This document shows positions 967 to 37,425 of a DNA stretch of 37,425 nt, piece by piece (position 1 is the first letter of the stretch; each line of letters opens with the position of its first letter). Location: assembly GCA_024181965.1 (NCBI GenBank), contig BQXS01012457.1, positions 1-37,425 on the forward strand, read 5' to 3'. The notes below the pieces were generated by a model that did no database searches, had not been told where the DNA came from, and saw only the letters and a program-made list of their open reading frames with translations. The position numbers were made by a program, and so were the translations under genes. The stretch is from Aduncisulcus paluster (Eukaryota).

Positions 967-3900
967 TTATTCTTCTTTCTTCTTGTCGAATCCTCTCGAA
1001 TCCCGGTATTCAATAGAACTCTGAATTGTTGAAGAGATACTCAAAGAATCCAATTCACTCGTTGGTGGGACAATATAACTTGATTCTGAGGTAATGACAC
1101 GGGATCTACTCGGATTGGATTGCTTTGAATTCGCTTTGGACAGAAGTTGAAGAGAGTAATCGTCAACGGATTCATCATGCCTTACAATGAGCAAAGATGA
1201 TTCGTCTGTATCTTTATCTGGGGTATAACTTATTTGAAGATCACGAGTTTCTTCACGAATAGTTTGGCGAGTCGAAGTTGAATCATTACTATCTTTCACC
1301 ACTCCATCACNNNNNNNNNNNNNNNNNNNNTTCTGAGGTAATGACACGGGATCTACTCGGATTGGATTGCTTTGAATTCGCTTTGGACAGAAGTTGAAGA
1401 GAGTAATCGTCAACGGATTCATCATGCCGTACAATGAGCAAAGATGATTCGTCTGTATCTTTATCTGGGGTATAACTTATTTGAAGATCACGAGTTTCTT
1501 CACGAATAGTTTGGCGAGTCGAAGTTGAATCATTACTATCTTTCACCACTCCATCACTCTCTTCTTCATACTCAAATTCAACAACATTCTTAGATTTTCC
1601 AAGAGTTTTGATCTTTTCCTTAATTATTTCATTCATGGTTGGGAATTCAAAACCTTCTCCAATCTTTGGCAATAAATCTTTGACATTTTGAACCCTTTTA
1701 CGCGCTTCATGAACACTCATGCGTTCATCTTCATTGAGTTTGGTAAGACCAATGAATACTTCATTCAAAACCTTATGAACAAGTTCGTATTTCCTATCTT
1801 CAATGGTTAACAAAGACTTAAACAAAGGAGATTGAGAGAGAGGTGGACACATATCATTTTCCATCAAACGCTTCAGTAATTTCATAATATCAAGAACATT
1901 GGCTTTTCCTAAACGAACTTTTCTATAAACTTCTCTAAAAATGGGTAATGAAACAAAAGGTTGTTCACATAAGAATAACGCCAGGATCGACATTCCAAGA
2001 GAATATCCATCGCTCTTTTGGGTCTGAGTTCCATATGAAAGAGTTTCATACGAGTTGTACACAAGAGTTCCACATCTGGAATTCTTTTGTTTTGTCTTTT
2101 CTTTCCTTTCGCCCTGGATGGCTGATTTAGAAGACGTTGAAGAAGAGATAGAATCTAAGATTTGAACCATTCCAAGATCACCAAGGACAACAGTGCAATC
2201 TCCATCTTTGGGATCAACACGAACAAGGAAGTTGTTTGGTTTGACATCTCGATGAATAAGACGTTTCTTTGCTCTAAACACATCATCAAGACATTCGATC
2301 ATCCCAACACAGAGAGAACATACTTTCACAGGATTCAGTGTCATGGGATCAACATGAGTTGTGTCATGTTCACTCTTGGAAGAATCAGAAGAATATTCTG
2401 AATCCGAATATTCTTCATCCTTTTCACTCTCATCTCTAACATCCTTTGCTTTTAAATACTCGCCATCATCACACCAACTCCTTGCAAAGTCCTTAACACT
2501 ACCTCCAGCACAAAATTCCATGATAAATCCATATACACCTTTCATATCTGCATCAAGCAGGTCAAGAATATAAAGAGGACGTGGGATACGATTGAAACAT
2601 TTTGGATTCGTAAACAATTTGAGTTGCATCTTGAACTCCTTTCGGCATCCTTTGACAACCCTTTCATCAGCTTCACGGAGCATTTTCTTCAGAACACAAG
2701 GAATCGGAATACCTTCAACTTCAACAAGAAGAACTTCACCAAATCCACCATGACCAATGATGCACTGAGGAGTGATGGTTTCCGAGGAAGTGAGAGTGAA
2801 AGAATCATGTTTGATAAGCTTTGTGGAATCTGAAGAAAGGGGAGGAATGTCTTCACCTTTAATGAAAATAAGGGAATCTATTTGAAAATTTCTACTATTC
2901 TTCTCTTCCCATGTTCCTTTGCCTTTAATATCACATAACCTAACGTTTTGTAAATCAATAGGAAGGAAGTACCATTCATATTCATTTTTATGTTTTATAA
3001 ATTCATACTTCTTGGATGTCTTCTTTCCATTTGAAAAAGTAAAAGTGAAGAGAAGAGAGGGAGAACTATCATCCTTTTCCACACAAATATATGCACCTTT
3101 TATAGGACTAGGTTGTGAAAAAGGGATGGAAAGGTGGGATAAAAATACACTATATTTTCCATTCAACATTCCTTGGGCTCTTGAACTCTTATCATACCAC
3201 TTAGATTCCATAATACAACAATCATCATATCCTTGTACCATGTCAAGGGGAGGTCGTATAACCGTTGGATCATATGGAAAAATTGGATATGAATTTTTAT
3301 CCCCCTTTTTAATAAAATTTGGTTTCACTATGGTTGCTTCATGCCATTGTTTCTCACAATTACCTTCCTTAATCTTATATGCATAGGATTCTTCAGAAGT
3401 TCTTTCTCTAACAAACGCAAGCGACATGATCCTAAATTTTTCTCCTTCTTTTCCTTCAATTTCACATAGAATAACGTCAGAAATATCAATTGATATGAAA
3501 AACCAACTATTTTCAAGAATTTTAGAAAAGTCAATCTTCTTGGCCTTTTTCTCCCTCTTTGAAGAAGTAAATGCAAACGTCAGCTGGGATGCAGATAATT
3601 CAGCATCTAAACATATATAAATACCTTTGATTGGGGAAGAGGATAGGAAAGGAATGGAGATATCTGTGAAATACTCTCTCTCAGAATAATCAACATATTC
3701 TTTCATCATCTGTTGAGCATTAGAACTCTGATCATAGCCTTTGTTTCCTTCCTCCTTGCTTTTGTCTGTTGCTTTAATTGCAGAAAAGTCTGGATTCTGA
3801 ACAATTGGATCGTCTCGAGGAATAGGAATGCAGGAGCAATCTCCAAAATTAATAAACTCAATAGTTCCAGTTGAAACATACTTTTTGATAAACAGCAGAG

Positions 3901-6900
3901 AAATTATGGTGAAGGATTGACTATACTTTATGTTCCATGTTCCTTTCCCTTTAATATCACATAACACAATATTTTCCAAATCAATAGGGAGAAAATGCCA
4001 TTCATAATCGTACTTGGGTCTTATAAATTCATATTTCTTGTATATTTTCTTACCATCAGAATCGGTGAAAGTGAAGAGAAGAGAGGGCGAACTTGAATCT
4101 TTATCCACACAGATATAAGCACCTTTCATAGGACTAGGTGATGGGAAAGGAATGGAAAGATGGGATAATGTCACTTCTCCTTCACCCTTTAACATTTCTT
4201 GTGCTCCTTCACTCTGGTCATAATACTCAGATTCAATAGAATACAAATCATTCTTTCCCTTGACCATCTCAAAAGAAGGACTATTGACGGCTGGATCATC
4301 ACGTGGAATGGGGATGGCAGATTCATCGCCAGAATTCACAAACTCGGGTGTAATGACGGGCTGTAGAGCATTTTTGAAAAAGAGATATGAAATGGTATTA
4401 GAAACAAATCGAAAGATCATATTGTCAAATAAGATTAGCATGAATCGTATCAAATAATAAACAAAGAAATAGCAAATATAAAACCAATAAAATATAATGA
4501 ACATACAGCTTTAGACCATTGGTCCTCAATGGATTCCCGAATACAACGTTCTTCAGGCGTTTCTTCTCGAAAGAAAACGAGAGCATCAATCCAAAAACTC
4601 CGATTATTATCATCATCATCCCATCCTTTCCCTTCAATCTCACACGATATAACATCGTCCAAATCAATAGGAAGGAAGTACCATTCATATTCAAACACAG
4701 AATCAATAGATTCTGATCCATCTTCTGAAGATTCTGATTCAGAGTCTTCCTTTGAGGATTCTGAAGTATCTTTCTCACGTTCCGATAACGTACTTTCAGT
4801 TTTTGAAAATTTATATACTTTCATAATCTTTTCCTGTTTACGGAGGGTGAATGTGAATATAAAAGACCCTGAAGAATAATAATCTTCATTCATACAGACT
4901 AAAACGCCCCTTATAAGACCAGAAGAGATAAAAGGAATCGAGAGATGAGTAATACCAATAAGCATATAATCAAAAACCTCTCGCTTCATCATATTTTGAA
5001 CTTCTAAACTCAGATCATAGTCATCAGAATCTTTATAATACATATCATTCTTTGCCCTTATCTTTGATAAAAAGGGTTTGACAATGCAAATATCATCTCG
5101 AGGAATATGAATTTCACTCGTACTACTTTTGACAACAAACTTCGGTGAGAAAATCTTAGCTTCAGAAAATAGATTTTCATGTGAACTTATCTTTGATTTA
5201 CGAACAAGTGATTCGTACGGCGTTTCTTCTCGAATAAAAAAAAGAGAATTAATTTCAAAACATCGACTTTTCTTCTCTTCCCATGTACCTTTTCCCTGAA
5301 TCTCACATAATCTAACATTTTCCAAATCAATAGGGAGAAAATGCCATTCATCATAATTTACAGGTCTTGTGAATTCATATTTCTTGTATGTTTTCTTGCC
5401 ATCACAATCAGTGAAAGTGAAGAGAAGAGAAGGTGAACTGTGATACTCATTTACACAGATATAAGCACCTTTCATTTTTGGATTTGGTGATGGAAAAGGG
5501 ATAGAAATATGGGATAACTTTACCGATATTCCCTTTCTTAACATGTTTTGTGCTTGTAAATTCTGATCATCAAGATCTAAATCATTGGATTTTTCTTCCA
5601 TATATGTTTCATTTTGTCCTTTAACCATCTCAAAGGAAGGGCAAATAATAATCGGATCATCAAGAGGATATGGAATATAGTCTCCACCTTCATCATGAAT
5701 ATAGGTCGGTTTCACAATTTGGGATTCAGACCAAAGTTTCTCAAGAGTTTCCTCTTTAAGTTTACGAATTGAGGTTTCTTCTTCCGTTTCTTCTCTAATG
5801 AAAACAAGTGAATTGATCCTAAAACGCCGACTATTCTTCATTTCCCATGTTCCTTTTCCTTCAATCTCACACAATACAACGTTAACCAAATCAATAGAAA
5901 GGAAGTACCATTCATATTCATGTTTAGGTCTTGTGAATTCATACTTCTTGAACGTCTTCTTATCGTCAGAATCGGTGAAAGTGAAGAGAAGAGAGGGCGA
6001 ACTTGAATCTTTATCCACACAGATATATGCACCTTTCATTGGACTAGGTGATGGGAAAGGGATGGAAAGATGGGATAAGCTAACGAAATCCTTCCCCTTT
6101 AATATATTTTGTACTTGCGAATTGATATTCTTATAAATTGTTTCATCTTTTCCTTTGACCATCTCAAAATTAGGATTTATGATAGTTGGATCATTGCGTG
6201 GAATTGGAATAGAATGGCCACCTTCATTTACAAATTTTGGCTTCAATACTGAGATGTCTAGGCATTGAGTTTCTCTACAACCGACAGATTCTGCATGTAT
6301 TTCTTCACGGATGAAAATTAATGAGTTAAGTTTAGAACATCGACTATTCTTTTCTTCCCACATCCCTTTCCCTTTAATATCACATAACACAATATTTTTC
6401 AAATCAATAGGGAGAAAATGCCATTCATAATCGTATTTGGGTCTTATGAATTTATATTTCTTGTATATTTTCTTACCATCAGAATCGGTGAAAGTGAAGA
6501 GAAGAGAGGGCGAACTTGAATCTTTATCCACACAGATATATGCACCTTTCATTGGACTAGGTGATGGGAAAGGGATGGAAAGATGGGATAATATCACTTC
6601 TCCTTCACCTTTTAACATTTCTTGTGCTCCTTCACTCTGGTCATAATACTCAGATTCAATAGAATACAAATCATTCTTTCCCTTGACCATCTCAAAAGAA
6701 GGACTATTGACGGCTGGATCATCACGTGGAATGGGGATGGCAGATGCATCGCCAGAATTCACAAACTCTGATTTAATGGCGGGCTATAGAGCATTTTTGA
6801 AAAAGAGATATGAAATGGTATTAGAAACAAATCGAAAGANNNNNNNNNNNNNNNNNNNNACCTTTTAACATTTCTTGTGCTCCTTCACTCTGGTCATATT

Positions 6901-9900
6901 ACTCAGATTCAATAGAATACAAATCATTCTTTCCCTTGACCATCTCAAAAGAAGGACTATTGACGGCTGGATCATCACGTGGAATGGGGATGGCAGATGC
7001 ATCGCCAGAATTCACAAACTCTGATTTAATGGCGGGCTATAGAGCATTTTTGAAAAAGAGATATGAAATGGTATTAGAAACAAATCGAAAGATCATATTG
7101 TCAAATAAGATTAGCATGAATCGTATCAAATAATAAACAAAGAAATAGCAAATATAAAACCAATAAAATATAATGAACATACAGCTTTAGACCATTGGTC
7201 CTCAATGGATTCCCGAATACAACGTTCTTCAAGAGTTTCTTCTCGAAAGAAAACGAGGTACTTGATTCGAAAATGACGGCTATTCTTCTCTATTAATGTT
7301 CCTTTCCCTTCAATCTCACACGATATAACATCGTCCAAATCAATAGGAAGGAAGTACCATCCATATTCAAACACAGAATCAATAGATTCTGATCCATCTT
7401 CTGAAGATTCTGATTCAGAGTCTTCCTTTGAGGATTCTGAAGTATCTTTCTCACGTTCCAATAACGTACTTTCAGATTCAGAGTTTTTCTTCTGTTTCTT
7501 CTCATCCGAAAATAAATACCTTTTGAAAGTTTTTGTATTATTTGAAAGAATAAAAGTGTAGAGTAGAGATGGTGAACTGTGATACCCATCCACACAGATA
7601 TAAGCACCTTTCATCCGACAAGGAGATGGGAAAGGAATGGAAAGATGGGATAATGTCACTTCTCCTTCACCTTTTAACATTTTTTGAGCATTTGAACCTT
7701 GATCATAATCTTCAGATTCCTTACTCTTCGAATCATCTTTGCTCTTAACCATTGACAATGAAGAGTTGATTACGCATGGATTATCACAAGAAATAGGAAT
7801 AGAAAATCGATATCCAGAATTAATATATTGTGGTATGATTGGTGTTTTTCCCCATATTTTCTTCAGACTTTCTATTCTTTGTTTACGGTTCGTAGATTCT
7901 TCAGATGTTTCTTCTCGAAAGAAAACTAGGGATTCGACATCAAAATATCGACTATTCTTTTCTTCCCACATCCCTTTCCCTTTAATATCACATAACACAA
8001 TATTTTCCAAATCAATAGGGAGAAAATGCCATTCATAATCGTATTTGGGTCTTATGAATTTATATTTCTTGTATATTTTCTTACCATCAGAATCGGTGAA
8101 AGTGAAGAGAAGAGAGGGCGAACTTGAATCTTTATCCACACAGATATATGCACCTTTCATTGGACTAGGTGATGGGAAAGGGATGGAAAGATGGGATAAT
8201 ATCACTTCTCCTTCACCTTTTAACATTTCTTGTGCTCCTTCACTCTGGTCATAATACTCAGATTCAATAGAATACAAATCATTCTTTCCCTTGACCATCT
8301 CAAAAGAAGGACTATTGACGGCTGGATCATCACGTGGAATGGGGATGGCAGATGCATCGCCAGAATTCACAAACTCTGATTTAATGGCGGGCTATAGAGC
8401 ATTTTTGAAAAAGAGATATGAAATGGTATTAGAAACAAATCGAAAGATCATATTGTCAAATAAGATTAGCATGAATCGTATCAAATAATAAACAAAGAAA
8501 TAGCAAATATAAAACCAATAAAATATAATGAACATACAGCTTTAGACCATTGGTCCTCAATGGATTCCCGAATACAACGTTCTTCAAGAGTTTCTTCTCG
8601 AAAGAAAACGAGAGCATCAATCCAAAAACTCCGATTATTATCATCATCATCCCATCCTTTCCCTTCAATCTCACATAACACAATATTTTCCAAATCAATA
8701 GGGAGAAAATGCCATTCATAATCGTATTTGGGTCTTATGAATTTATATTTCTTGTATATTTTCTTACCATCAGAATCGGTGAAAGTGAAGAGAAGAGAGG
8801 GCGAACTTGAATCTTTATCCACACAGATATATGCACCTTTCATTGGACTAGGTGATGGGAAAGGGATGGAAAGATGGGATAATATCACTTCTCCTTCACC
8901 TTTTAACATTTCTTGTGCTCCTTCACTCTGGTCATAATACTCAGATTCAATAGAATACAAATCATTCTTTCCCTTGACCATCTCAAAAGAAGGACTATTG
9001 ACGGCTGGATCATCACGTGGAATGGGGATGGCAGATGCATCGCCAGAATTCACAAACTCTGATTTAATGGCGGGCTATAGAGCATTTTTGAAAAAGAGAT
9101 ATGAAATGGTATTAGAAACAAATCGAAAGATCATATTGTCAAATAAGATTAGCATGAATCGTATCAAATAATAAACAAAGAAATAGCAAATATAAAACCA
9201 ATAAAATATAATGAACATACAGCTTTAGACCATTGGTCCTCAATGGATTCCCGAATACAACGTTCTTCAAGAGTTTCTTCTCGAAAGAAAACGAGAGCAT
9301 CAATCCAAAAACTCCGATTATTATCATCATCATCCCATCCTTTCCCTTCAATCTCACACGATATAACATCGTCCAAATCAATAGGAAGGAAGTACCATTC
9401 ATATTCAAACACAGAATCAATAGATTCTGATCCATCTTCTGAAGATTCTGATTCAGAGTCTTCCTTTGAGGATTCTGAAGTATCTTTCTCACGTTCCGAT
9501 AACGTACTTTCAGTTTTTGAAAATTTATACTTCTTGTGTGTCTTTAACCCTGTTGGACTTGTGAAAGTGAAGATAAGATGAAAAGGTGCTAAATTTTTCA
9601 CAATACAAATATAAGAACCTTTTAATGGGGTGGATGCGGATAAAGGTATCGATATATAGGTACAGGATCCAGAAATGAACTCTGTTTCGCCTTTCATCAT
9701 TTCTTGAACCTCTGAACTCAGTTCATAGCCGTCTTGACCAATATCCACTGTTTCATTGATTGAATTGATGTTGTCAAAGTCTGGATTCGTTATGTTGGGG
9801 GCATCACAAGGAATTGGAAGACAAGACAAACCTCCTTCACGGATAAATTCTGGATAAACGAGTTGAATCTAGATAAAATTGCCAAAATAAATCGATTATA

Positions 9901-9988
9901 AGCAATATTATATCAAATAAAAGTATATTTGGCTTCAAAAATCTCTTTTTTTACGTACTTCACTTTCTGAACTTGGATTTAGATCCAT
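967..9988 (-). CDS. Giant multi-exon protein kinase with 11 tandem N-terminal modules. Exons (minus): 9988-9959, 9868-9221, 9074-8538, 8391-7183, 6783-4507, 4360-967. About 2,615 aa if the gap overlaps at 6840 and 1311 are collapsed.
   Basis: ATG at 9988 (MDLNPSSESE). All exon lengths are multiples of 3 and the introns are GT..AG, joining ...QWSKA|P(V/A)I(T/K)(P/S)EFVN in frame. Module consensus is PEF..GD...IPIPRDDP...LSHLSIPF.SPSPMKGAYICV...SSPSLLFTFT...KKYEF....EWHFLPIDL....CEI.GKG...F.I.SL.F.RE, with 1+1+2+4+3 copies per exon. The kinase has GHGGFG, VLKK, HRDVKPNN, DLG, CGTLVYNSYE and SDGYSLG. TAA is at 967-969. No signal peptide or TM is evident in the spliced product. Confidence 0.85.
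1084..1557. repeat. Duplicated flanks of the 20-N gap 1311-1330 (1084-1310 vs 1331-1557); probable unmerged contig overlap
   Basis: Near-identical 227-nt copies at offset 247. Collapsing them restores a continuous kinase C-terminus ending at TAA 967. Confidence 0.85.
1670..2790 (-). other. Ser/Thr-type protein kinase domain of the modular kinase (approximate bounds)
   Basis: Gly loop GHGGFG, Lys in VLKK, alphaC Glu (RKEF), catalytic HRDVKPNN, DFG replaced by DLG, APE replaced by SYE, and an acidic/Ser insert after the hinge (EKDEEYSDSEYSSDSS). Confidence 0.93.
4361..4506 (-). other. Spliceosomal intron, 146 nt, phase 0 (copy A; GTATGT...CTACAG)
   Basis: Donor GTATGT follows the codons for WSKA, the body is T-rich with CTAAT branch-like motifs, and the acceptor is CAG. 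Removal fuses ORF 4450..6762 to ORF 1307..4504 in frame. Confidence 0.9.
6784..6839 (-). other. 3' part of the same intron (copy B), cut by an N gap; probably the same physical intron as 7037..7182
   Basis: Identical to the 3' end of the other copies (acceptor CTATAG). Sequence after the gap (6860-7092) repeats 6607-6839 at offset 253. Confidence 0.75.
7037..7182 (-). other. Spliceosomal intron, 146 nt, phase 0 (copy C; GTATGT...CTATAG)
   Basis: Same sequence as copy A except the acceptor is TAG. The join WSKA|PAIKSEFVN is in frame. Confidence 0.9.
8392..8537 (-). other. Spliceosomal intron, 146 nt, phase 0 (copy D)
   Basis: Matches copy C, GTATGT..TAG, in-frame join. Confidence 0.9.
9075..9220 (-). 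other. Spliceosomal intron, 146 nt, phase 0 (copy E)
   Basis: Matches copies C and D, GTATGT..TAG, in-frame join. Confidence 0.9.
9869..9958 (-). other. First intron of the modular kinase, 90 nt, phase 0 (GTACGT...TCTAG)
   Basis: It links a 10-codon ATG exon to IQLVYPEFIREGGLSCLPIP, which matches the module start. It contains an in-frame TGA and is AT-rich. Confidence 0.75.
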
Positions 9989-10865: not shown

Positions 10866-13800
10866 TCACATGGCTACAAATTTGATCACCATAAAAAACA
10901 ATACAATTCCGATTGTCAACACTAATCCCCAACCAAGAATCATATCTTGTTTAGGATAAATTTGGGAGAAATGACAATCCTCTTCACTGTGCATTGTAAA
11001 TGTTTGGAGAGGAATCGGAATATCATACGCATCCCAAAGATGAGAAATATCGTTTGTGCTCATCTCTACATCACACCCATCATAATTCTGTTGGAAGGAT
11101 GAGCTTGAAGGTGTGTATGTTTCACAATCGTCAGAGCTTGGATAATTTATCACAATAACACCTAGAAGGTTGGTATCTGTAATAGAAACGATTGTAACAG
11201 TACTTTTATCTGCAGATTCATACCCAACACATGTTTCAGGCAGTGTACTTTGTAAATAAAGCATTGAACACGTGACACCATCGATTGTATAATCAACAGA
11301 AGATGTGAGACTGGATGTATCTGTAGTAAAATACTCATCGATCACTCCAGAGGAAATATTGAATGCACTTTTGCTCTTCAAAACACCCAGAGATTCCAAG
11401 AGGGTGAATATGGCAGGATTTGATTCCCCAATGAACACTTCTTCATTCATTGTAACAGCCATCTCTAAAGTGTCAATTTCGCTATCTCTCGAGGAAAATA
11501 ATAAGTTCCCATTAGTATTTAGCAAGAAGCATGTAACTGTGCTATCACTGCCACATAATCCTTCATATAGGAAAGATTTAATCGTTGGGAAATGAATGTT
11601 GAGTCCAGATACCATAGTTGGAGTCCCATTGACAACTTTAGCCTTGCTGATACTAAATTGAGATATGTTTGTATCTGGAGACGTGACAGGAAGAGAAACA
11701 AAGAGAGTGTTGTCGCCAGCCATGGCATTTGTTAGAGAATTACCATACCATGTGAATTCTTTTGGTTGTGGGACCTCTGAGAAAGAAGTTCCTGGGAATA
11801 GCGAGAGAACTCCCTCAGGAGTGGCTCTGAAAGATGATAAGACATATTTTTGAGTGGTCTCTTCGTCAACAGCTGTACTAACAACATGGTCATCAAATAT
11901 ACTTATCATCTTTGCTGCATCAATACACGCCTCTGTCACATAGGTTGAATCAGATTCCCCACTCAGCTCAGCAGTAATAGATTCGAAAAGAGAGGAAGAA
12001 TCAAGTGTGGACGAGGAGAAGTCTGATGTGAACAAGGTGGAATCTGTGAAACATTCTTCAGATAGATGGACAAAGGGAGTGGTCAAAGATGCCGTAACAC
12101 CAGTCAACAAGAAATGGTCTGTGATCGCTGCATAACCGATATCGGCTTGATAATCAGAGTTTGCAAGAGATATTTGACCCCAAACACTTGCATTATAGCA
12201 TAAAGAATCGTCAGAAATGTCAGAACATGAGCTTTCAGGTGGAGGAATGTGTATCTTATCAATGTCAAGTTGTTGAAGTGAAGTGACAACGATAAACTCC
12301 GTGTCAAGCTTCTGCCATCCATATGTGGTCTCCACTGGGGTTAATTCAGTGAAATCGGCTACCATATGTCTCAGAACAGGGACGGATAGTTCACCAGTAT
12401 TAACACTTCTGTTAACAACAGTGTATAGAACACTTGATGAGAAATCGCTTCCCCCAGTGGTTAAAGGATTATCGTCAACATAGTCAGAGTCAAACTGCTC
12501 AAGCAAGTCGAGATCAACACCCTCGTTAGTTAACCCAATGTTAACAAGTGCCGGGTGCAGCAATAATGTTTTCTGTCTGTCAAATAACATCGGGAAGGAA
12601 TAGTTACTGTCAATGCCAACCCCATCGGCATCTATCACGTGGTCTAACATCCACTGAAGTGAAATATCAATAAGAATTACACTATCAAAGCGATCATTGA
12701 TGAACACTGGAGAAGCAAGGGATACGATATTACTTTCTAAAATTGGATCTTTCTCAATACTTACAATTTCCCAAAGCATCTTATTGGCAACTTCTTCATT
12801 CGAACATACAGCTTCATCACCTTGGGCACAATCAAAGGGTCCAAACTGTCTAAATAATTCAAATGCTCTCATTGCTAATTTTTGTTCAAATATTCTTTCA
12901 ACGGGCTTAAGCAGTTCGCTATAATCTGTATAAACAAATCGTCCTTGAGTAGTCACCGAATCACTAGTATCATCGTCGTCAGATATATCACTGGCCATGT
13001 AAAGGTCATAGTAACCACTAAAATCTATTGAATCGATACTTCCATTGAGCCGACAACTAACTGAATGGAGAATATTCTCAGTTGCTCTCGAAGCCATGAC
13101 ATCACTTGATGATAAACCGTCACTGTTCAGCATCAGAGTATTATTAAGAATGTCGTCCGCCAGTGTCGATCTGAAGAATAACGTGGACACATGTGCATTG
13201 CTTACTTTCTCTCTGTCTGAAGTGAGATGGAGCTCCAAGTGGGCTGGAACAGCGGCACCGAGGGATACAGTGATGACATGAAGCGGAGAAGAAGAGGGGA
13301 GAGGACGAAGCGGAGTGAGAGAAGCCTGGGAGGAAGAGAAACCAACTGGACTAGCCACACGTTCAGAAAGAACCGTTTCCAGTGACACGGAAGGATCCAG
13401 AGCACCTCGGAGCAGGACATAAGCCTTTGAAAGAGCCACGACAAGCGGGGCATCAGCGGACAGAGCTGAAGAAGAGAAAGGCGAGAGGTGATCCCGAGCC
13501 ATAAGCTCTTCCCCAGACAAATTATCGAAATAATCTGTCACTTCGTCCATTAGAAGATTGACTGCAGCGGATGTCATACTGACAAGACCACCTTCAAGCT
13601 CGTCATCACATCCACGTTTATCACCTCCATTGGAAGTAGCTGTGAACTCAAGCCGAGCATCAAAAGCTTCGTCTGTTGATAAGATAGCCACGTAATCTGT
13701 AGAAGTCAAATGCGATAGAATAATGTTGACTGTATCACTCATTTGAGCAATTGCAGCAGCTGCCACATCCTCATCGGCAAGGGCTATATCAATTACTGGA

Positions 13801-14663
13801 TCTGTCTCAATATCTATAATTAGAACAATTCCTCGTCTTATGCCCATATTTCTTCCCACATCATATGTAATACTGGACCTTGGGTCAAGAGTGGAGCGAG
13901 AGAGAAGAGAAGAAGAAGAGATAGGATGGAAGAAATTAACTCCAGGAAATAGAGTCACAGCTCCATCTGTAAACACCCTTCGAATCCAAAGAAGCGGAGA
14001 TACGGCCGTGTCAACATTGCCATCCTGGTCGACGACATATTCCATGTTACAATCATAAGAACCACGATCACAGAAGTAAACGTTCCGAAAGGCATCGATC
14101 ATTGTTTGAGACACCTGTTTATCCTCATTACACGTTTCACTGGTGAAGTACGGGCACCATAGCGTTGGTGTTTCGAAGGTTAATGGTAAAGTCTCATCCT
14201 CATCATCTTCATTGACATATTGATACTTCTTGAGTAAGTCAGCCTCATCAGTCGAAGTGCTAATGAGATCATCATCTAAAGATTGGGATGCAAGAGGCAA
14301 AGTAATTGAAGCTTCCTCTTGAAGGGCTTGAGTAAACTCTTTTGAGAACTCAGCAATATTTTGGAATATACTATTAAACATTGAATCAATCGTTTCCGAT
14401 ACATCATCAGTAAATTGATTTCCATAACTTGAACTTGAACTAACAGATTGTAACAGCTCAGAAAAAATCTCTGTGTTCGAAGAAGGATAAAATAGATCAT
14501 AAAATTCACTCCACATGTTAACAAGCTCAGCATAATTCTGCAATGTGAGATAAGTTGACGAATCTTCATCAAGACATTGAGTTGGAGCGACACAGAAGAA
14601 AAAGCATACAATAGGGATAAAAATCAGGAAAAACTGAGATATACAAGTTTCTTTCATGGCCAT
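10866..14663 (-). CDS. Alpha2delta/CACHD1-like VWA + Cache domain type I membrane protein, 1265 aa
   Basis: N-terminal hydrophobic signal (FFLIFIPIVCFFFCVAPTQC). DGAVTLFPG...LDPRSSITY resembles the alpha2delta G....YP...YDPR.RPWY motif and is followed by a VWA strand IVLIIDIETD...ILSHLTSTDYVAIL. Cache-like segments include SLASPVF...VILIDISL, YSFPMLFDRQKTLLLHP, EGVLSLFPG...FTWY and CFLLNTNGNLLFS. C-terminal TM is ILGWGLVLTIGIVLFFMVI. Confidence 0.8.
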   Translation of the reverse strand: MAMKETCISQFFLIFIPIVCFFFCVAPTQCLDEDSSTYLTLQNYAELVNMWSEFYDLFYPSSNTEIFSELLQSVSSSSSYGNQFTDDVSETIDSMFNSIFQNIAEFSKEFTQALQEEASITLPLASQSLDDDLISTSTDEADLLKKYQYVNEDDEDETLPLTFETPTLWCPYFTSETCNEDKQVSQTMIDAFRNVYFCDRGSYDCNMEYVVDQDGNVDTAVSPLLWIRRVFTDGAVTLFPGVNFFHPISSSSLLSRSTLDPRSSITYDVGRNMGIRRGIVLIIDIETDPVIDIALADEDVAAAAIAQMSDTVNIILSHLTSTDYVAILSTDEAFDARLEFTATSNGGDKRGCDDELEGGLVSMTSAAVNLLMDEVTDYFDNLSGEELMARDHLSPFSSSALSADAPLVVALSKAYVLLRGALDPSVSLETVLSERVASPVGFSSSQASLTPLRPLPSSSPLHVITVSLGAAVPAHLELHLTSDREKVSNAHVSTLFFRSTLADDILNNTLMLNSDGLSSSDVMASRATENILHSVSCRLNGSIDSIDFSGYYDLYMASDISDDDDTSDSVTTQGRFVYTDYSELLKPVERIFEQKLAMRAFELFRQFGPFDCAQGDEAVCSNEEVANKMLWEIVSIEKDPILESNIVSLASPVFINDRFDSVILIDISLQWMLDHVIDADGVGIDSNYSFPMLFDRQKTLLLHPALVNIGLTNEGVDLDLLEQFDSDYVDDNPLTTGGSDFSSSVLYTVVNRSVNTGELSVPVLRHMVADFTELTPVETTYGWQKLDTEFIVVTSLQQLDIDKIHIPPPESSCSDISDDSLCYNASVWGQISLANSDYQADIGYAAITDHFLLTGVTASLTTPFVHLSEECFTDSTLFTSDFSSSTLDSSSLFESITAELSGESDSTYVTEACIDAAKMISIFDDHVVSTAVDEETTQKYVLSSFRATPEGVLSLFPGTSFSEVPQPKEFTWYGNSLTNAMAGDNTLFVSLPVTSPDTNISQFSISKAKVVNGTPTMVSGLNIHFPTIKSFLYEGLCGSDSTVTCFLLNTNGNLLFSSRDSEIDTLEMAVTMNEEVFIGESNPAIFTLLESLGVLKSKSAFNISSGVIDEYFTTDTSSLTSSVDYTIDGVTCSMLYLQSTLPETCVGYESADKSTVTIVSITDTNLLGVIVINYPSSDDCETYTPSSSSFQQNYDGCDVEMSTNDISHLWDAYDIPIPLQTFTMHSEEDCHFSQIYPKQDMILGWGLVLTIGIVLFFMVIKFVAM

Positions 14664-15438
14664 TTAGAAAAATAATTGAATTGAACGAGAAATAAATGGA
14701 AAAATGACAAGAAAACACCTAGCAGGGACCGCCCCCCCCGGGTGTATCACGGACAGGGGAGCGTTCTAATCACAGAATAAAACTGTTGAAGGAGCCAAAT
14801 TTGCCAAATGGAATTGATTCCATTATTTTTCACCAGAACAATAGGAATTTACCTTGATAGGGAAAGATTATCCAAATTTGTGCAAACTCACCAGAAATTG
14901 ATAATCAGTGGAATCAATCGTTTCCGATACATCATCAGTAAATTGATTTCCATAACTTGAACTTGAACTAACAGATTGTAACAGCTCAGAAAAAATCTCT
15001 GTGTTCGAAGAAGGATAAAATAGATCATAAAATTCACTCCACATGTTAACAAGCTCAGCATAATTCTGCAATGTGAGATAAGTTGACGAATCTTCATCAA
15101 GACATTGAGTTGGAGCGACACAGAAGAAAAAGCATACAATAGGGATAAAAATCAGGAAAAACTGAGATATACAAGTTTCTTTCATGGCCATTTAGAAAAA
15201 TAATTGAATTGAACGAGAAATAAATGGAAAAATGACAAGAAAACACCTAGCAGGGACCGCCCCCCCCGGGTGTATCACGGACAGGGGAGCGTTCTAATCA
15301 CAGAATAAAACTGTTGAAGGAGCCAAATTTGCCAAATGGAATTGATTCCATTATTTTTCACCAGAACAATAGGAATTTACCTTGATAGGGAAAGATTATC
15401 CAAATTTGTGCAAACTCACCAGAAATTGATAATCAGTG
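14383..15438. repeat. Head-to-tail 528-bp tandem duplication (14383-14910 / 14911-15438) covering the 5' end and upstream region of the VWA-Cache gene
   Basis: I saw no differences between the two copies. The second copy generates the truncated ORF 14868..15191. Confidence 0.92.
14868..15191 (-). pseudogene. Truncated duplicate of the first ~93 codons of the VWA-Cache gene (a real fragment or an assembly artefact)
   Basis: Identical N-terminus up to ETIDS, then it reads into upstream non-coding DNA and stops. Confidence 0.55.
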
Positions 15439-15849: not shown

Positions 15850-16445
15850 ATTGACTTCCGATAATTTATTTTTATTTTTCAATTATGGATACTCCCCAAA
15901 AGAAAGACAGCCACATTCCATGATAAATACAAATTGCCAATTTGAATCAGTGATTCTGAGATAAAAGGTGCTTTCAACTTTGAAAATAAAGATTTTCATT
16001 TTTTTGGGTGCAAAGATGAAGCCATTGAAAATGCTGCAGCAATATTACAATCCTGAGCAAATCGTCTTCTCCCCCACTCAACAACTCCTTTTGCATATTG
16101 AGCTGTTCCAAGAGCTTGCGCAAGACCTACACCAATANNNNNNNNNNNNNNNNNNNNATTGACTTCCGATAATTTATTTTTATTTTTCAATTATGGATAC
16201 TCCCCAAAAGAAAGACAGCCACATTCCATGATAAATACAAATTGCCAAGTTGAATCAGTGATTCTGAGATAAAAGGTGCTTTCAACTTTGAAAATAAAGA
16301 TTTTCATTTTTTTGGGTGCAAAGATGAAGCCATTGAAAATGCTGCAGCAATATTACAATCCTGAGCAAATCGTCTTCTCCCCCACTCAACAACTCCTTTT
16401 GCATATTGAGCTGTTCCAAGAGCTTGCGCAAGACCTACACCAATA
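15850..16445. repeat. Duplicated flanks of the 20-N gap 16138-16157 (offset 308); probable contig overlap
   Basis: 15850-16137 is repeated nearly identically starting at 16158. Confidence 0.85.
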
Positions 16446-16952: not shown

Positions 16953-19900
16953 ATGTCATTTCGACTCAAATCGACTTCGAAGATGATGTCCTCCAGAATT
17001 TCTCGAGGAGTTTCTAAAGCCAGTCCACCAAAATCTAGGCCTGGTGCACGTTCTATACATACACAGAAGCGAATTGTATCAACCCCTCCATTCCTAAATT
17101 CTCCCGTTAATTCTCGGTCTTCGTCCGTTGGAAGATCGTTTTTACCCTCTCCAGCCCCTTCTCCCTTCACTGATAGGCCCCAAAGACAACGCCGCGGTAG
17201 ACCTTCTTCCCAGAGGCCCAGACAAGCTAAAACTCCTGTTAAATCTCCATATTTTGGAACTAAACCCTTTGAGCACTCCTTGGTGCAGTCTCATGGCTCA
17301 TTTAAACGTTCTGTCAGTAGTAGTGCCGCTTCCACTCGTTCTGCCTTATCTTCATTGATAGCTTCCCGTACGAAAGGTTTTGACAGAGCTCCAATGCTCT
17401 CCCGTGATGATAAAGTGTGTGGATGGGAAGCTGTTAGGGCTGAATTATGGAAAGCATGTGATGGAGACATTGAAAAGGTTAAAACTGTATTTTTGACAGC
17501 TGTTGTCGATAATGCACAAGCTGAAAAGAATGCGAAGACAGCCCATATGGCTAACACACTCCGCCAACCTGGAGGCACTCAGTTGATTGGTGGAACTGTT
17601 GGAGATCTCATTTCTTCTTCCACCATCCGTGATCAAGGAATTGTAAGTCAAAGAAAGTCAACAATTGTTCCACAGGTTGGTCGTGAGAGTGCTGCTTGCG
17701 TTGTTCAGACTCCTCTTAAGGTTGAAAAGAAAAAAAATCCAACTCTTGTTGCTTCTTCAACTTCTTCAACTTCTTCAGCTTCAGAAGGAGGTTCACAGGT
17801 CCAATTCTTGCCATCCGATGGATTTATTAGTCGCGGAGAGCTTGTCCATTGCCTTCATAAGTTGAATGCTCTTGTTCCAACTCATGCTCTTCGCCATGCT
17901 GTTCGTCACACGGAAAGAGATTCAAAGGGATGTGTCAGGGTTAAAGACTTTCTCAATAAGCTCGATTTAGAATCATATGCTCGTGGTAAGGTCTCCGATA
18001 TGATTATTCGTAAAGAAAGGGCGATTGCTGGAAAGAGTCAAGATATTGCCAAATGTTCAAAGCTCCCTGCTTCTGATGATGTTATGGAAGAGATTGAATC
18101 CTATAAAATCCATGGAAATGTAGATATCCCACCAATTTCCACTACTCTGTTGTCAAAAGGAGCAGAAGATGCTGTTCGACAACATGATACCGGAGACCAG
18201 TCTTCTCCTTCCGCCAGAAGGAAACAACGGCAGAAAGATCACAATAGTCACATTACATGGAGTGTTTCTTCTTCCGAAAGTCGTGAACAAGCTCTATCCT
18301 TGCTGAAAAACTACCTTCCTGAAGGTCTTGGATGTGTTGGAAGCGATGGGGCCAAAGAAGCTTGGGTATCTCTAAAGAAAAACGCTGAATCTACGACAAA
18401 GGGAGTTGTAGGTACCTCTACGTTGCGTTCTAGCGATGAGGTCACCGTTGGAGATCTTCGAAAGGTTTTGATGGACGTTGCATCATCACATTCAAATGGA
18501 GCTTCAAGCGAAGTCTGCAATAATATTGTCAACGAGGCGTTGACTCAGGTCATGAAAAGAGAATCGTATGACAATGAAGATCCTGTCGCATTTAAGCAAT
18601 TCGCATCTATGTTCTTTGCTAAACCTCCAAGAAGAGCATCAGTACTATCTTTGAACCAACACAAGAGCTTTAAGAGCACTATTGCTGATGTGTTCNNNNN
18701 NNNNNNNNNNNNNNNATCTTCGAAAGGTTTTGATGGACGTTGCATCATCACATTCAAATGGAGCTTCAAGCGAAGTCTGAAATAATATTGTCAACGAGGC
18801 GTTGACTCAGGTCATGAAAAGAGAATCGTATGACAATGAAGATCCTGTCGCATTTAAGCAATTCGCATCTATGTTCTTTGCTAAACCTCCAAGAAGAGCA
18901 TCAGTACTATCTTTGAACCAACACAAGAGCTTTAAGAGCACTATTGCTGATGTGTTCCAGCCCGGTGAAGAGGAGGAAGAGGCAGAAGAGAAGAGAGGAG
19001 AAGCAGAAGAGAAGAGAGGAGAAGTGAGAGCTGCAGGTGAGAGGAAATTGCAACCTGAAGGAGCTGGGGCAGTCATTCAGGATGCTTCCAAACCTTCAAA
19101 GGATGATGTGAGGTTAAAATTGCTCATAAGATCAATTAAAACTGCTTCTCTTGCTCCCGCGAGTGTATCCCAAGCCTTTGTAACCTACGATATAGGTCAT
19201 ACTGGTAAAATCCCCCAATCTCTTGTTAGACGCGTGTTTGATTCTCTTGGAGTCCGTGTGGGTGCAAGCTCCATTCGTAAGTTTTGTGAATTGGGCAAGA
19301 GTGAATCCGATCCATTATATGTTAATTATGTAGATGCTCTTGAGAGTTGTATTGGAGGTGGAATATCTGACAATGTTCATGAACAACTTGCCATTCATAA
19401 ACATCTTGATCTCTCTTCCCCAACTGGAGTATCAAACGCTGAGAGGAAGAAGCGAGGTCACGTCAGCCAATCTTCCATTGTCCTTGGATATGATTATAAT
19501 AACATTCATACCCCCAAGAAACCAGCTTCTCCCGTGTTACCAAGAAGAGGATCTCATTCGTCTCACGTCAGTGAAAGTCTTGGTGTACAAGGGATGATCA
19601 ATGGACAGAAAGATCTTTGGAAGGAGGATTCAAAGGTACAAGAAAGAAAACAACGTGAAAGTACAATGTGTAGGAAAGAAAAGGAAGAGGATAGGAAAAA
19701 GGAAAGATCATCTCGGAGAACAAAAGTATACGCTCCAACTTCTTCCTCTTCTTCCTCTTCTTCCTCTTCTTCCTCTTCCAAAACTCCTTCTCGTTATCAC
19801 CATTCCAGTAGTAACAGTGCTCAGAATGCCATTGCAGGAGCGGTACCATCACGTGAACAACAGCGTTTAGAAGGGCAGCGTCATGCCCTTGAAAGTCGCC

Positions 19901-20313: not shown

Positions 20314-20557
20314 TTGTTGATGTTCATTGGACAACGTGATTTTGGAATTCTGATAAACTTTACCTTCAAGGTAATAGGTAACTTATTTGTTATGTGTACA
20401 ATTAAGTTGTATTTATCAACCATTTATAAAGTGTTTTTTGAATAAACTAAAGTATTATTATGAAATTTGGGAAGCAATAATAATTTTATTCGTTGTTGTA
20501 TTGCAAAAAATTCAAAAATCCGAGTTTGGCTGAAATATTAATGAAATAGATTTTATT

Positions 20558-23365
20558 ATGGACAATTATTTTATAAATAACCCGATAATCATCATTCCTG
20601 GCTCTTATTATACTCGATATGGCTGTGCAAAATCCATTTCCAGTGTCAAATCTTGTCGAAGTGTTATTGGAGAACTTATTCCCGCGAAAAATAAGAAATC
20701 CTCCCAATCTGCATCATTATGGCAAAATGTTAAACATTTAATTCCTCCAAAATCCTATCAATCAATTGAATCGGTTGAATCTCTATTCGATAAGTTTGAT
20801 GGGATTTTATTTAATTCTCGATCAAAATCGTCAATCATATCCACAAAACATCATCTTTCCAAATCTTCTTCCAAGCGTCGATCCATTACTCCACTTACTT
20901 CCCAAAAAATGTCGGAAAAGCGAAGAAATTCTTTATCCAAATCATCAAAAATATCAAAATCAACAAAATCTAAACACTTGGAAAGCGATGATCATGATTC
21001 TTATGATCATGATTCATATGATGTCAAATGCATAAGTTTCCTTGATTCAGAATCACATCATTTTCCATCAATTCTTGAAATTGACGCTTGTGTCAAAGCT
21101 AATAATCCAATATCATCAGAATTCCTCGTGGAATCTGAAGATTATCTTGGTATTTCCCATGATGGATTTGAGTTACCTTCTCACGTTCCCAATTCTCATC
21201 TAACAGTTCTCCCTTCTTTTCTATATGGAGAAAAAGCCCTTGAACATGCATCGGAATACACAATAACTGACATATTTACGTCAAAAGGCCACCTTAATCT
21301 TCATCCGTGTTCTTTCATCGATCAATCTTCATTCAGTTCATCTTGTCACAGATATCCATCTTCCACGAGCTCTGATTTTGGTGATAAGTTTTCTAAGACA
21401 CATGTTGATTTTGATATTACTCGTTGCATGCACAACACTCAGCTTTTTCTTGGAAGTTTAATATCTTCAGTCATGAATTCATTTCCTCATGAACAGCCAT
21501 TGAAGTCTTCTTCTGTTGAACAAATATCATTGTCTTCCTTGACATTTCCAAATATTTCGATCATATACGTTATTCCCGATTTAATTTCTAAACAAGAATT
21601 ATTCCTTCTTTGTGACATTTTCTTCAAGAATATGAAATTGTATAGCGTCACGTTTATACAAAATAGTGTTGCATGTTGTTTTGGTTCTCTGTCTCTCTCT
21701 TCTCACCAATCTTCTTCAACTGTATCCAAACACACGGCTCCTTTCTCGATTGTTCTTGATATTGGTCATTCTTATTGTTCTTTTTGCGCTGTAAAGGATG
21801 GCAATATTGTTCCTCATACTGCATTCTTACTGAATACTGGGTGCTCTGGTTTCAGAAATGTATTTGTTGATTCTATTTTTGGATCATCTTTCTCAAGTTA
21901 TCAGTCATTTCGTGGTTGTTTTGAAACCAAAAGGAAGGAAGAAAATGGTGATGGAAAAGAGAGAGTGAAAGAAAAAAAGATAGAAGAAGAAGAAAAGAAA
22001 GAAATTTTTGATTTATTTCCACCTCTAATTTATTCTCCTTGTGTTTCAATGTCTTCAATTCACATTGAAAAAAAAATGCATTCAAAACATATCAATATTG
22101 CCAATCTTCCACATATTCGATCACAATTATCTTCTTCGCCAAATCCTCATGGCTTTGATTGCATTATCAATACTATTCTTTCTCATGGGTTATCAATGGA
22201 TTCAACCAATCCTCAATTTACCATCAAGCCTTCCTCTAATTCCTCTTCCTCTTCATCTTCATCTTCCTCTTCCTCTTCTTCGGTTCTTAGTGTTCGATTG
22301 GGAAGTACGTCTCAAGTTATACCATCATGTATGCTTTTACAACCATCATTATGTTCGACGTCTTGTCTTTCTTCTATTCAATCTGAACATTTATATGGTC
22401 ATTTGTCTCATTTTTCAGCTATAAAGAATTCTGAAGATCAAGCAGAGTTGTTAATTCAAAGTTTTGGAAGAATATCGCCATATTTAGACTCTTATTATGG
22501 ATTTATATCACCAATATCCTTGATCCAAAATATATATCAGCTTAAACAACCATATCCAAAGGTTATTGCTGATTCAAAAAGAGATACAGATATAGATCTC
22601 GTGAGTCTATTTTTAGAATTGAGAATAAGAGCATCAATCCTTCGCCATTCAAATCTTTCCTTTATTTCTGATTCTGACATCAAATCACAATGTTCCAAGA
22701 GCACCAATCCAATTAATATGCTAAGTTTTGTTCAAAAAAATCCACAATATGCTATTGTTGAACCAATTTTTGAGCTATGTAAATATATTATTATTTGTGG
22801 ATTGTCTGGTTTCGGCGTTTTGCTTGGAGATGAATTTATATCCAAACAGAAAATGATCCATAAAATTTCAAAAAAGACCAAAAAGAAAGAAAAGAAATCC
22901 AAATTAGAAGAAGAATCAACAAAATGCGAAGAAAAGTCTGATCATGGAAAAGAAGAATCACCGAAACCAAATGTCAATAATGAAACTGAATCTGTTAAGG
23001 AACATTCGACAAAAACAGCAAAAGAAAAGGAATTATCCGACGCACATTCAAATCATGCTCTATTTTTGGATCATTCTTATTTTGAGAATTTTCTTTCCTC
23101 AATTGTTGTGACTGGAGCATTAAGCGAATGTCCATATTTTATTGAGAATTTGAAATACCGTCTACAAGAAACTTTGAAAAAAGATCAGAGCCATTCATTC
23201 AATATAAATATCGAGTCTGCACTGTTGTCACACTCCAATATCGCATTTCACGGATGCTGTGTGATTTCCATGTCAAAAGATTATGCTTCTTGTAATATTA
23301 CGAGAAAAGATTGGTTTGAATTGGGTTCAATAGCCTTGAAAAAAAGCATGTTCGAGTGGATATGA
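20558..23365 (+). CDS. ARP8: Actin-related protein 8 (INO80 complex subunit), divergent, 935 aa
   Basis: IIIIPGSYYTRYG resembles Arp8 IVIHPGS..LRIG. LYGEKAL is present. YVIPDL...FIQNSVACCFG resembles LIPD...HQESVCATFG. VLDIGHSYCSFCAVKDG resembles VVDVGDQKTS.CCVEDG. SIVVTG is present, and the C-terminal ITRKDWFELGSIALKKSMFEW resembles I...EW...G.R.LRE...F.W. Confidence 0.8.
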   Translation: MDNYFINNPIIIIPGSYYTRYGCAKSISSVKSCRSVIGELIPAKNKKSSQSASLWQNVKHLIPPKSYQSIESVESLFDKFDGILFNSRSKSSIISTKHHLSKSSSKRRSITPLTSQKMSEKRRNSLSKSSKISKSTKSKHLESDDHDSYDHDSYDVKCISFLDSESHHFPSILEIDACVKANNPISSEFLVESEDYLGISHDGFELPSHVPNSHLTVLPSFLYGEKALEHASEYTITDIFTSKGHLNLHPCSFIDQSSFSSSCHRYPSSTSSDFGDKFSKTHVDFDITRCMHNTQLFLGSLISSVMNSFPHEQPLKSSSVEQISLSSLTFPNISIIYVIPDLISKQELFLLCDIFFKNMKLYSVTFIQNSVACCFGSLSLSSHQSSSTVSKHTAPFSIVLDIGHSYCSFCAVKDGNIVPHTAFLLNTGCSGFRNVFVDSIFGSSFSSYQSFRGCFETKRKEENGDGKERVKEKKIEEEEKKEIFDLFPPLIYSPCVSMSSIHIEKKMHSKHINIANLPHIRSQLSSSPNPHGFDCIINTILSHGLSMDSTNPQFTIKPSSNSSSSSSSSSSSSSSVLSVRLGSTSQVIPSCMLLQPSLCSTSCLSSIQSEHLYGHLSHFSAIKNSEDQAELLIQSFGRISPYLDSYYGFISPISLIQNIYQLKQPYPKVIADSKRDTDIDLVSLFLELRIRASILRHSNLSFISDSDIKSQCSKSTNPINMLSFVQKNPQYAIVEPIFELCKYIIICGLSGFGVLLGDEFISKQKMIHKISKKTKKKEKKSKLEEESTKCEEKSDHGKEESPKPNVNNETESVKEHSTKTAKEKELSDAHSNHALFLDHSYFENFLSSIVVTGALSECPYFIENLKYRLQETLKKDQSHSFNINIESALLSHSNIAFHGCCVISMSKDYASCNITRKDWFELGSIALKKSMFEWI

Positions 23366-26203: not shown

Positions 26204-26309
26204 TGTAGAAAACGGAAGAAACAACCAACCAACCAATGGAAGATAGAAATAGTCTTAGAGTGTACAAATTACGAACGAATGAATGATGAAGATGCGATTG
26301 ACCAGCAGA

Positions 26310-26488: not shown

Positions 26489-26964
26489 CAATATGAGTGT
26501 GGACAGAAGTAAGGATATTTCATGCTTAAATTATTTTTGCACAGCATTTTATTCATTTTATTTATTTTTGATATTTTTATTATATTATATATTGGATACT
26601 TCCAGTTTCTAGTTTGAAATTCTGTCGCTCACGAGCTTTGCGAGGTTCATGCGTTCATCGTTTGAAAGCACAATATTTGGAATAGTGCGATATAAAATTT
26701 TGGATAGTATTTCAATNNNNNNNNNNNNNNNNNNNNCAATATGAGTGTGGACAGAAGTAAGGATATTTCATGCTTAAATTATTTTTGCACAGCATTTTAT
26801 TCATTTTATTTATTTTTGATATTTTTATTATATTATATATTGGATACTTCCAGTTTCTAGTTTGAAATTCTGTCGCTCACGAGCTTTGCGAGGTTCATGC
26901 GTTCATCGTTTGAAAGCACAATATTTGGAATAGTGCGATATAAAATTTTGGATAGTATTGCAAT
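26489..26964. repeat. Duplicated flanks of the 20-N gap 26717-26736 (offset 248); probable contig overlap
   Basis: 26489-26716 is repeated at 26737-26964 with one mismatch near the end. Confidence 0.85.
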
Positions 26965-28610: not shown

Positions 28611-28713
28611 TTTTATCCTTTATATTTTCTCCAAGCTCACAAAAGAAGAAACTTCACAATAATTGATCATCCAAAAATAAAAGTAGCCAACAAAGCGAAA
28701 AAAAATAATTTAT

Positions 28714-30060: not shown

Positions 30061-30486
30061 AAGATAAACTTGTACAGTAGTCAAATCGAAAAGAAAATCG
30101 TGAATGAACGGTATGGTGGAAGGTCAACATTGAATTCTGATAAAAATGTTCATTGATACGTAATAATTTTATTTAACCTTATTTTGAACGTTTAAGCACT
30201 AGTGGCGGGCAGAAAAAGGAAAAAATCCATACAACATGATCCACTGGCCTATGTAATGCAAATTAAATAATTCATGCTTCTATATTTAATAATGAATAAC
30301 ATATTTGAAAATTCAAATATGCCATCCAAGGAATCAATTGAAAATCGAAAATGCGTTAATTGACAAATAGAGCCTTTTGTCAACCAGTTATCACCTTAAT
30401 TGGATATATCTGTCACTTTTTAACAAATTGACCATTTCTTTTTGCGAAATTTACTATAAAAGAATTGTTGACTGTCATAATTTTTG

Positions 30487-37392: not shown

Positions 37393-37425
37393 ATGTTGCC
37401 AAAAGGCAATGTTGAACGCAAAATT

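Follow-up and report, generated by a model that had tools for sequence, protein, structure and literature searches.

Tandem modules of a predicted repeat-kinase gene in Aduncisulcus paluster probably recombine along their whole length and diversify at 16 codons

Introduction

When near-identical modules of a repeat gene end in different C-terminal segments, does a recombination hotspot at the boundary shuffle those segments? This question is raised by a gene of Aduncisulcus paluster that lies in a stretch of 37,425 nucleotides (nt; the window, contig BQXS01012457.1). The gene occupies the minus strand from an ATG at 9988 to beyond an assembly gap at 1311-1330 and consists of a short first exon, 11 tandem modules of about 165-210 residues (M1-M11, numbered in order of transcription), four copies of an intron and a C-terminal kinase. 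A first inspection, made from the letters alone (the sequence-only reading), had proposed that the conserved DNA AAGGGAAAGG, at the GKG motif, is a hotspot that places variable tails on a constant scaffold. The locus gives a direct test of the hotspot idea, which fails. We consider it likely that this is a cytosolic repeat-kinase gene whose 11 modules evolve within a recombining pool, with breakpoints anywhere in the module and with 16 codons under diversifying selection.

Results

Heads and tails of the modules

The peptides and coordinates of the sequence-only reading, all on the minus strand as it had said, proved correct, and base-by-base comparison confirmed its four near-identical post-intron modules with different continuations. 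Over the 559 nt ending at GK, M2 differs from M3 at 2 positions, M5 at 1 (M5 being read across an assembly gap) and M9 at 14, and the tails that follow GKG are WDDDDNNRSF in M2, MWEEKNSRYF in M3, MWEEKNSRCS in M5 and TWNIKYSQSF in M9. Among 17 post-intron modules, sequences from different contigs have an identity of 0.95 near the intron but of 0.71 in codons 141-157, so that a constant head with a variable tail is the norm for the subfamily. The exon at 8538-9074 had been called a chimera and is one: because positions 7988-8675 equal 8671-9358 with zero mismatches (688 nt, period 683), M2 is an exact chimera, an M3 head on the M1 tail, and a very recent one with both parents adjoining. This exon of 179 codons stands between two phase-0 introns, and its skipping would thus remove one module in frame. 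Almost all differences among M2, M3 and M5 are in the post-GKG loop and last strand, which makes these modules natural controls in which the contribution of this segment to binding is directly measurable.

The claim that the copies diverge at or just after GKG holds for two of the four switches, which touch the motif. The M2 switch falls within a shared TGTGA that precedes the first GKG base by 8-12 nt and is not part of AAGGGAAAGG, and M3 and M5 separate 25 nt downstream of GKG. Only the M9/M3 switch and the M4/M1 patch start at the motif edge; M4, which the earlier reading did not include, is otherwise an M1-type module but has a true 42-nt patch running between GKG and LVFFREE, and it joins M1-type sequence within its acidic insertion. 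Tracts also end far from GKG, in M6 (M3-type head over codons 65-102) and between M8 and M1 near codon 110. The motif is present in 7 of the 11 modules of the gene; only some modules are bounded by a phase-0 intron, and most switches fall inside exons. The acidic Ser/Glu-rich insertion of M1, M4 and M8 (about 9400-9530, 7360-7520 and 4685-4815), also seen in a paralogous array (locus L035, near 7200), occupies a variable loop at about codon 113-118, and one paralog has a different insertion at the same place.

Distribution of breakpoints in the family

The family sample comprised 181 module matches in the window and 43 fetched stretches, from which 150 modules were aligned for folding, 153 for clustering and 88, all of one subfamily, for selection and breakpoints. 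These 88 main-subfamily modules come from the window and other contigs and are biased toward relatives of M3. An analysis of the single best tract per pair was swamped by N-terminal subfamily structure, with 42% of the tract ends in codons 20-38, and overlooked any second tract; a two-state model counting switches from codon 39 was therefore used instead, on the 25 of 3828 pairs with a strong near-identical tract, the count leaving out up to five redundant window-window pairs.

The 25 close pairs gave about 56 expected switches, 6.0% of them in codons 134-141, and the share was 4.2% for the 50 switches outside the window. Artificial chimeras placed 6.0% of switches in these codons under a uniform distribution, 16.8% under a fivefold hotspot and 22.2% under a tenfold one, and a fivefold hotspot is rejected with a Poisson p of about 0.01-0.016 when switches are treated as independent, which they are not fully. 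Family-wide, the switch points spread over the whole module and match the uniform null, the very outcome that the sequence-only reading had set against its hotspot. A copying model agreed, giving codons 130-140 a rate of 0.031 switches per nt where five other core scaffold blocks had 0.030-0.045; in its hotspot simulations the 130-140 block did rise. The total jump count of this hidden Markov model was rejected as evidence of recombination because simulations without recombination gave 14 jumps, and the population simulations were unmatched in divergence. Paralog pairs share exact tracts of 105-404 nt, whose ends lie at codons 85, 86, 98, 102, 113-119, 128, 135, 151 and 155. Crossovers are thus not confined to one short sequence, as they would be in site-specific cassette exchange. 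A Pfam scan of nine other window open reading frames (ORFs) and the kinase-only ORF, which did not extend to the genome, found no recombinase, and the fetched loci, likewise searched without the rest of the genome, held no close donor for any of the five tails (best, 9 mismatches in 48 nt).

Hypervariable codons and selection

Sixteen codons are hypervariable in the 88 modules (46, 52, 62, 64, 86-89, 107, 118, 141, 143, 144, 149, 151 and 153 in M3 numbering), within a scaffold that is near-invariant and uniform even at silent sites. Six of them lie in the 13 codons after GKG and ten upstream. The proposal that modules recombine into new head/tail combinations in a diversifying array stands, but the variation is not confined to the tail. 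The 141-153 peptide is distinct in 83 of the 88 modules, and in a second subfamily (32 modules) the same regions vary, there by loop length too.

The suggested check of the ratio of nonsynonymous to synonymous rates (dN/dS, omega) gave values above 1 at variable codons, in the post-GKG segment and elsewhere. When sites were picked on one half of the contigs and omega was estimated on the remaining half, its value at hypervariable codons was 3.4-6.1 (Goldman-Yang, GY) or 2.2-3.0 (Muse-Gaut, MG), versus 0.33-0.38 for the rest, in all four splits. In a site model, codons 64, 118, 143, 151 and 153 had nonsynonymous rates near 6 with synonymous rates near 1, codon 143 not being individually significant. 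Tree-free diversity was 0.52-0.57 at the first two positions of hypervariable codons versus 0.19 at fourfold sites, and in 17 disjoint close pairs 135 of the 138 differing hypervariable codons change the amino acid. The most variable codons have all four bases at all three positions (1.5-2.0 bits at each position of codons 64, 151 and 153, with TGG, GAA and CGC among them), and alternate strand positions (62/64, 149/151/153) vary around fixed ones. An internal stop occurs in only 2 of 152 full modules.

In the close pairs, 80 of the 138 differing variable codons differ at two or three bases, versus 15 of 142 in the scaffold. Silent third-position differences are more frequent beside a differing variable codon (20/334) than far away (29/1054; p=0.01), and fourfold diversity declines with distance from variable codons (rho -0.41, p=0.016, 35 sites). 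Such multi-base differences and dragged silent neighbours would fit short conversion patches of old selected variants.

Predicted fold of the module

A structure model built from the 150-sequence alignment (predicted local distance difference test, pLDDT, 94) indicates that the module is a galactose-binding-type jelly-roll beta-sandwich of the DOC/CBM32/discoidin-like kind. Structural matches were CBM32 (Z 12.4), APC10 (Z 12.1) and the HECTD3 DOC domain (11.7) at 4-13% identity, with root-mean-square deviations of 3.0-3.3 over 136-145 residues for the best (5a31_L, 1jhj; 7jnb, 3nng), and Atlas feature matches were CBM30, Exop_C and Lyase_N at 0.91-0.92. The predicted fold thus resembles APC10/DOC, CBM32 and F5-8 type C domains (Z 12.1-12.4), whereas the loops that are conserved in APC10 are hypervariable here. 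By sequence the module falls outside the Pfam DOC family, with no match to ANAPC10 (PF03256) at E<=1 and none to F5_F8 in Pfam, and a search of PDB sequences returned one chance match (E=0.31). Alignment of the module with hhalign to the genome's own DOC domain (locus L071) was not significant (probability 0.1). This DOC domain has a weak BTB match, and 11 loci of the genome, L070 and L071 among them, score as true ANAPC10, none inside the window.

The post-GKG segment had been taken for a variable loop and terminal strand, and the model indeed places a coil at 139-149 and the last strand at 150-158. Positions 62-64, 86-89, 114-118 and 141-153 would lie at the same end of the sandwich. Since residues 5-165 of the model align colinearly to APC10 7-166, the variable loops 86-89 and 141-149 probably correspond to the 80s and 140s loops of APC10. 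APC10 contacts the D box via these two loops (PMC5717348), and the authors of the HECTD3 structure propose that loop variation sets DOC specificity (PMC13018541).

Support for the junctions in assemblies and reads

The M9, M5 and M3 junctions are backed by contigs of two sequencing runs, X1 and X2. X1 contigs assembled at k=31 cover 3047-3971, 6055-6368 and 7713-7976 at even depth (about 1200) without differences, and all three stop 30 nt inside the shared head; X2 adds a contig over 3721-4087, with the M9 junction. X1 is possibly the assembly's own source, so its contigs may not be independent biology. No contig spans the M2 junction among the 16 matches listed, to which 6339 unlisted ones would add, and the 39-mer at this junction occurs once in the assembly. 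The window has five gaps of 20 N (1311-1330, 6840-6859, 16138-16157, 18696-18715 and 26717-26736), each flanked by a duplication of 227-288 nt. These duplications are overlaps left by scaffolding; they give rise to spurious short repeats, and the public gene model P0020 contains two of them. One gap (6840-6859, duplicated 233-nt flank) lies within the array, so that neither the number of copies of the 683-nt unit nor their order is secure.

Family and genome distribution

Judged by its matches, the gene belongs to a very large family of Aduncisulcus paluster. All 18 matches of a word-based search bore this species name, as did 18 of 20 checked among the 175 matches of a profile search of 1.84 billion representatives; the other two were weak repeat matches in a bacterium and an insect. 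A search of the genome returned 1482 candidates, of which 150 were scored and all matched, a figure that is not a copy number. No published description of the family was found in the literature searched, which misses most subscription papers, and the keywords kinase, repeat and expansion were absent from the parts of the species' genome announcement that were searched (PMC9933649). The family is apparently undescribed and species-restricted.

Paralogs differ in their architecture. Positions 24746-26254 (minus strand) encode a kinase paralog (PF00069) with no modules in its ORF, whose DNA is 75-79% identical to parts of the array kinase; it is adjoined by a 438-residue ORF (23530-24846) with no Pfam match. 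In the public gene model of protein P0021 (contig C9722, the array in L035), nine modules and a kinase follow a PARP catalytic domain (PF00644, E=4e-11), a fusion that may be an annotation join. At locus L042 (C12511) modules flank the kinase on both sides in one open frame of 1502 residues.

Structure of the gene and its neighbours

The exons and introns that we read have the same start and splice sites as P0020 (Table 1). Among the read junctions listed none skips the intron, which bears neither way on expression. No signal peptide or membrane segment was seen at the first exon by eye. The 146-nt intron recurs with 89-91% identity at 23 places on other contigs. The C-terminal domain matches a Ser/Thr protein kinase above the Pfam cut-off and has the Gly loop, the catalytic Lys, HRD and a DFG-like motif.

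Table 1 Features of the array gene in the window
Feature	Position	Strand	Basis
First coding exon, MDLNPSSESE	9959-9988	-	same start in P0020
GT-AG intron, 90 nt, after first exon	9869-9958	-	sequence read
M1, divergent, containing an acidic Ser/Glu insertion; source of the WDDDDNNRSF tail	9263-9868	-	repeat comparison
146-nt phase-0 intron, copy 1 (GTATGT...TAG)	9075-9220	-	spliced here in P0020
M2 exon, 179 codons, M3-type head and M1 tail	8538-9074	-	exact repeat comparison
M2 module	8580-9074	-	sequence comparison
Shared 5 nt where M2 switches (Cys134 and the codon after it); GKG follows 8-12 nt downstream	8671-8675	-	exact repeat
Tandem duplication without mismatches, 683-nt period; the unit of tail, intron and head is not in register with the protein module	7988-9358	.	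exact repeat
146-nt intron, copy 2	8392-8537	-	sequence comparison
M3, reference module, predicted galactose-binding-type jelly roll	7897-8391	-	structure model and alignment
M4, own head, M1-type acidic middle, 42-nt patch, M1-type tail	7225-7863	-	repeat comparison
M4 patch, 42 nt, between GKG and LVFFREE	about 7258-7299	-	sequence comparison
146-nt intron, copy 3; 3' part recurs at 6784-6839 across gap	7037-7182	-	sequence comparison
Gap in the assembly; 6860-7092 and 6607-6839 are the same but for one difference, a scaffolding overlap rather than a module	6840-6859	.	repeat comparison
M5, M3-type head, equals M3 for 25 nt beyond GKG, then own tail	6289-6783	-	X1 contig 6055-6368 covers junction
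M6, 113-nt tract (5966-6078, codons 65-102) identical to M3-type head	5776-6273	-	exact repeat
M7	5212-5742	-	module profile match
M8, own head, equals M1 over 4559-4815 (edge near codon 110)	4549-5178	-	exact repeat
146-nt intron, copy 4 (...CAG acceptor)	4361-4506	-	sequence comparison
M9, head of M3 type with 14 differences over 559 nt; tail departs at third base of last GKG Gly	3866-4360	-	X1 and X2 contigs cover junction
M10, divergent, shorter post-GK loop	3389-3886	-	sequence comparison
M11, CDIK codons common with M3, M5, M9; 33 nt common with M1, M8	2843-3355	-	sequence comparison
Predicted protein kinase domain, motifs GHGGFG, VLKK, HRDVKPNN, DLG	1706-2764	-	Pfam PF00069, E=5.9e-14

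By Pfam, the neighbours in the window are a tubulin C-terminus (3-476), an actin-like protein (20534-23365), a NUDIX protein (27534-28619), an NAD(P)H-hydrate dehydratase (28714-30123), an MMPL-family membrane protein (30481-33294), an XPG-family nuclease (33687-35774) and a bromodomain protein (36082-37425). A 1265-residue ORF (10866-14663) has no Pfam match; its start is duplicated exactly over at least 300 nt (14383-14682 and 14911-15210), not at a gap, and the second copy ends early.

Discussion

Comparison with known systems

The module is a predicted jelly roll of 165 residues, whereas the WD40 blade of the Podospora anserina HNWD proteins has 42 residues; the partner is a predicted kinase here and a STAND nucleoside triphosphatase (NTPase) there, 16 codons vary rather than four, and no phenotype is known here. 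Pfam found only the kinase in P0020, and no STAND NTPase or WD40, ANK or TPR repeats. In the HNWD/NWD family (het-d, het-e, het-r), units are exchanged within and between family members and evolve in concert, positive selection acts on four codons placed in pairs around a conserved one, rearrangements create new unit variants and a signalling domain is attached (PMC1805685, PMC2873952). The Aduncisulcus modules likewise show concerted evolution, both inside one gene and among genes, and a small number of positively selected codons next to conserved ones. By analogy, the Aduncisulcus gene would work like het-d/het-e, its closest working model, yet is not a member, having no NTPase and no WD40. 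The ROCO-LRR and NB-ARC-TPR candidate receptors of Ectocarpus likewise combine reshuffled repeat arrays, diversifying selection and a signalling domain in a eukaryote that is neither animal nor plant, but there each repeat is one exon and exons shuffle, while most switches here are inside exons (PMC3341825).

Two further systems offer a parallel, diversity-generating retroelements (DGRs) and shufflons, in which variable codons lie near the C-terminus of a binding domain or tails are exchangeable. In DGRs variation is restricted to template adenines, with the third codon position fixed; all four bases at all three positions of the most variable codons exclude such adenine-only mutagenesis here. 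Unlike shufflons, the modules have no fixed crossover site.

Weighing the explanations

We regard it as very unlikely that AAGGGAAAGG is a sequence-specific hotspot which swaps a terminal cassette onto a constant scaffold. Such a hotspot would account for the M9/M3 and M4 switches at the motif edge, for the tract ends near GKG in this gene, for the motif in seven modules and for two or three paralog pairs that diverge at codons 140-142 after an upstream patch, but the M2 and M5 switches lie outside the motif, the family-wide share at the block equals the uniform null, the five tails lack a close donor in the fetched loci, and linkage across GKG (V5-V6, 0.17/0.33) is not below that across the previous scaffold block (V3-V5, 0.14/0.17). 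It is also quite unlikely that assembly produced the M2 chimera, or the copy number or order of the repeats. The scaffold is of a short-read type with a gap inside the array, the 688-nt repeat is perfect and M2 is not spanned among the contig matches listed; yet the M9, M5 and M3 junctions are covered at even depth, the M2 junction is not borrowed from another contig, and graph assemblers cannot join across a 5-nt overlap without reads. This possibility concerns M2 and the order only and leaves the family pattern unaffected.

The multi-base differences at variable codons, the silent differences near them, the fall of fourfold diversity with distance and the highest jump rates of the copying model, which are at variable blocks, could also come from a targeted short-patch process (micro-conversion or multi-base mutation) that adds diversity besides selection. 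We doubt this: old selected variants in ordinary short conversion tracts are expected to leave the same pattern, silent changes at the variable codons themselves are rare (3/138), internal stops are few, and the proposal names no enzyme or guide. It is similarly improbable that a free-living unicellular eukaryote actively builds an intracellular recognition repertoire by aiming multi-base mutation or short-patch exchange at binding-tip codons in hundreds of jelly-roll modules, at a pace that lets new specificities arise within clonal cultures. Least credible to us is that the variable positions are unconstrained surface residues of a drifting family with no recognition role. No function is known for the family, the assembly has many partial gene models and dN/dS is open to recombination bias; against drift, diversity at the variable sites is about three times that of silent sites, cross-validated omega is well above 1 and alternate strand positions vary around fixed ones.

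Several points weigh against a recombining pool under diversifying selection. Because some sequences recur among the 25 pairs, these are not independent; the copying model found 22 jumps per module against 14 in simulations without recombination, its absolute rate being unreliable; recombination can inflate tree-based site-wise dN/dS; the clustering of variable positions on one face derives from strand order; and ligand, expression and kinase activity are only putative here. Moreover, 4 of 10 hand-counted tract ends in this gene fall within codons 134-149 (binomial p=0.014), and there may be a modest local preference. The simplest cause of this clustering is that, between unlike modules of this gene, DNA conservation is highest in W121-I136 (identity 0.83 and 0.72 versus 0.44-0.77 elsewhere), which is followed directly by the densest run of variable codons, so that identity tracts visibly end there and heads seem to break at GKG.

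Proposed mechanism and meaning

For the recombining pool that we favour, homology-driven unequal crossover and gene conversion would carry stretches from module to module, both inside the gene and among paralogs, with tract ends anywhere in the module; the mosaics are observed, and the repair pathway is the presumed one. Copying would keep the scaffold and the intron near uniform and make chimeras such as M2, by a 683-nt duplication, and M4, by a 42-nt patch. Diversifying selection, to which the dN/dS values point with the caveats given, would hold 16 codons different between copies. From strand order and the colinear match, these codons would lie in or beside loops at one end of the sandwich, the ligand-binding end in APC10, and the six behind the best-conserved block would make fresh heads appear to break at GKG. 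Each protein would then display a row of differing binding sites, and ligand binding would regulate the kinase.

The family may thus encode in the germline a repertoire of binding specificities for use inside the cell, in which every array regulates its own kinase, and most plausibly this repertoire would serve the recognition of foreign or fast-changing ligands. A DOC/CBM32-like domain would here be diversified in the way in which fungal non-self receptors diversify WD40 repeats. If foreign ligands are recognised, the family would be an innate recognition repertoire that a free-living fornicate has evolved independently and whose output is a kinase.

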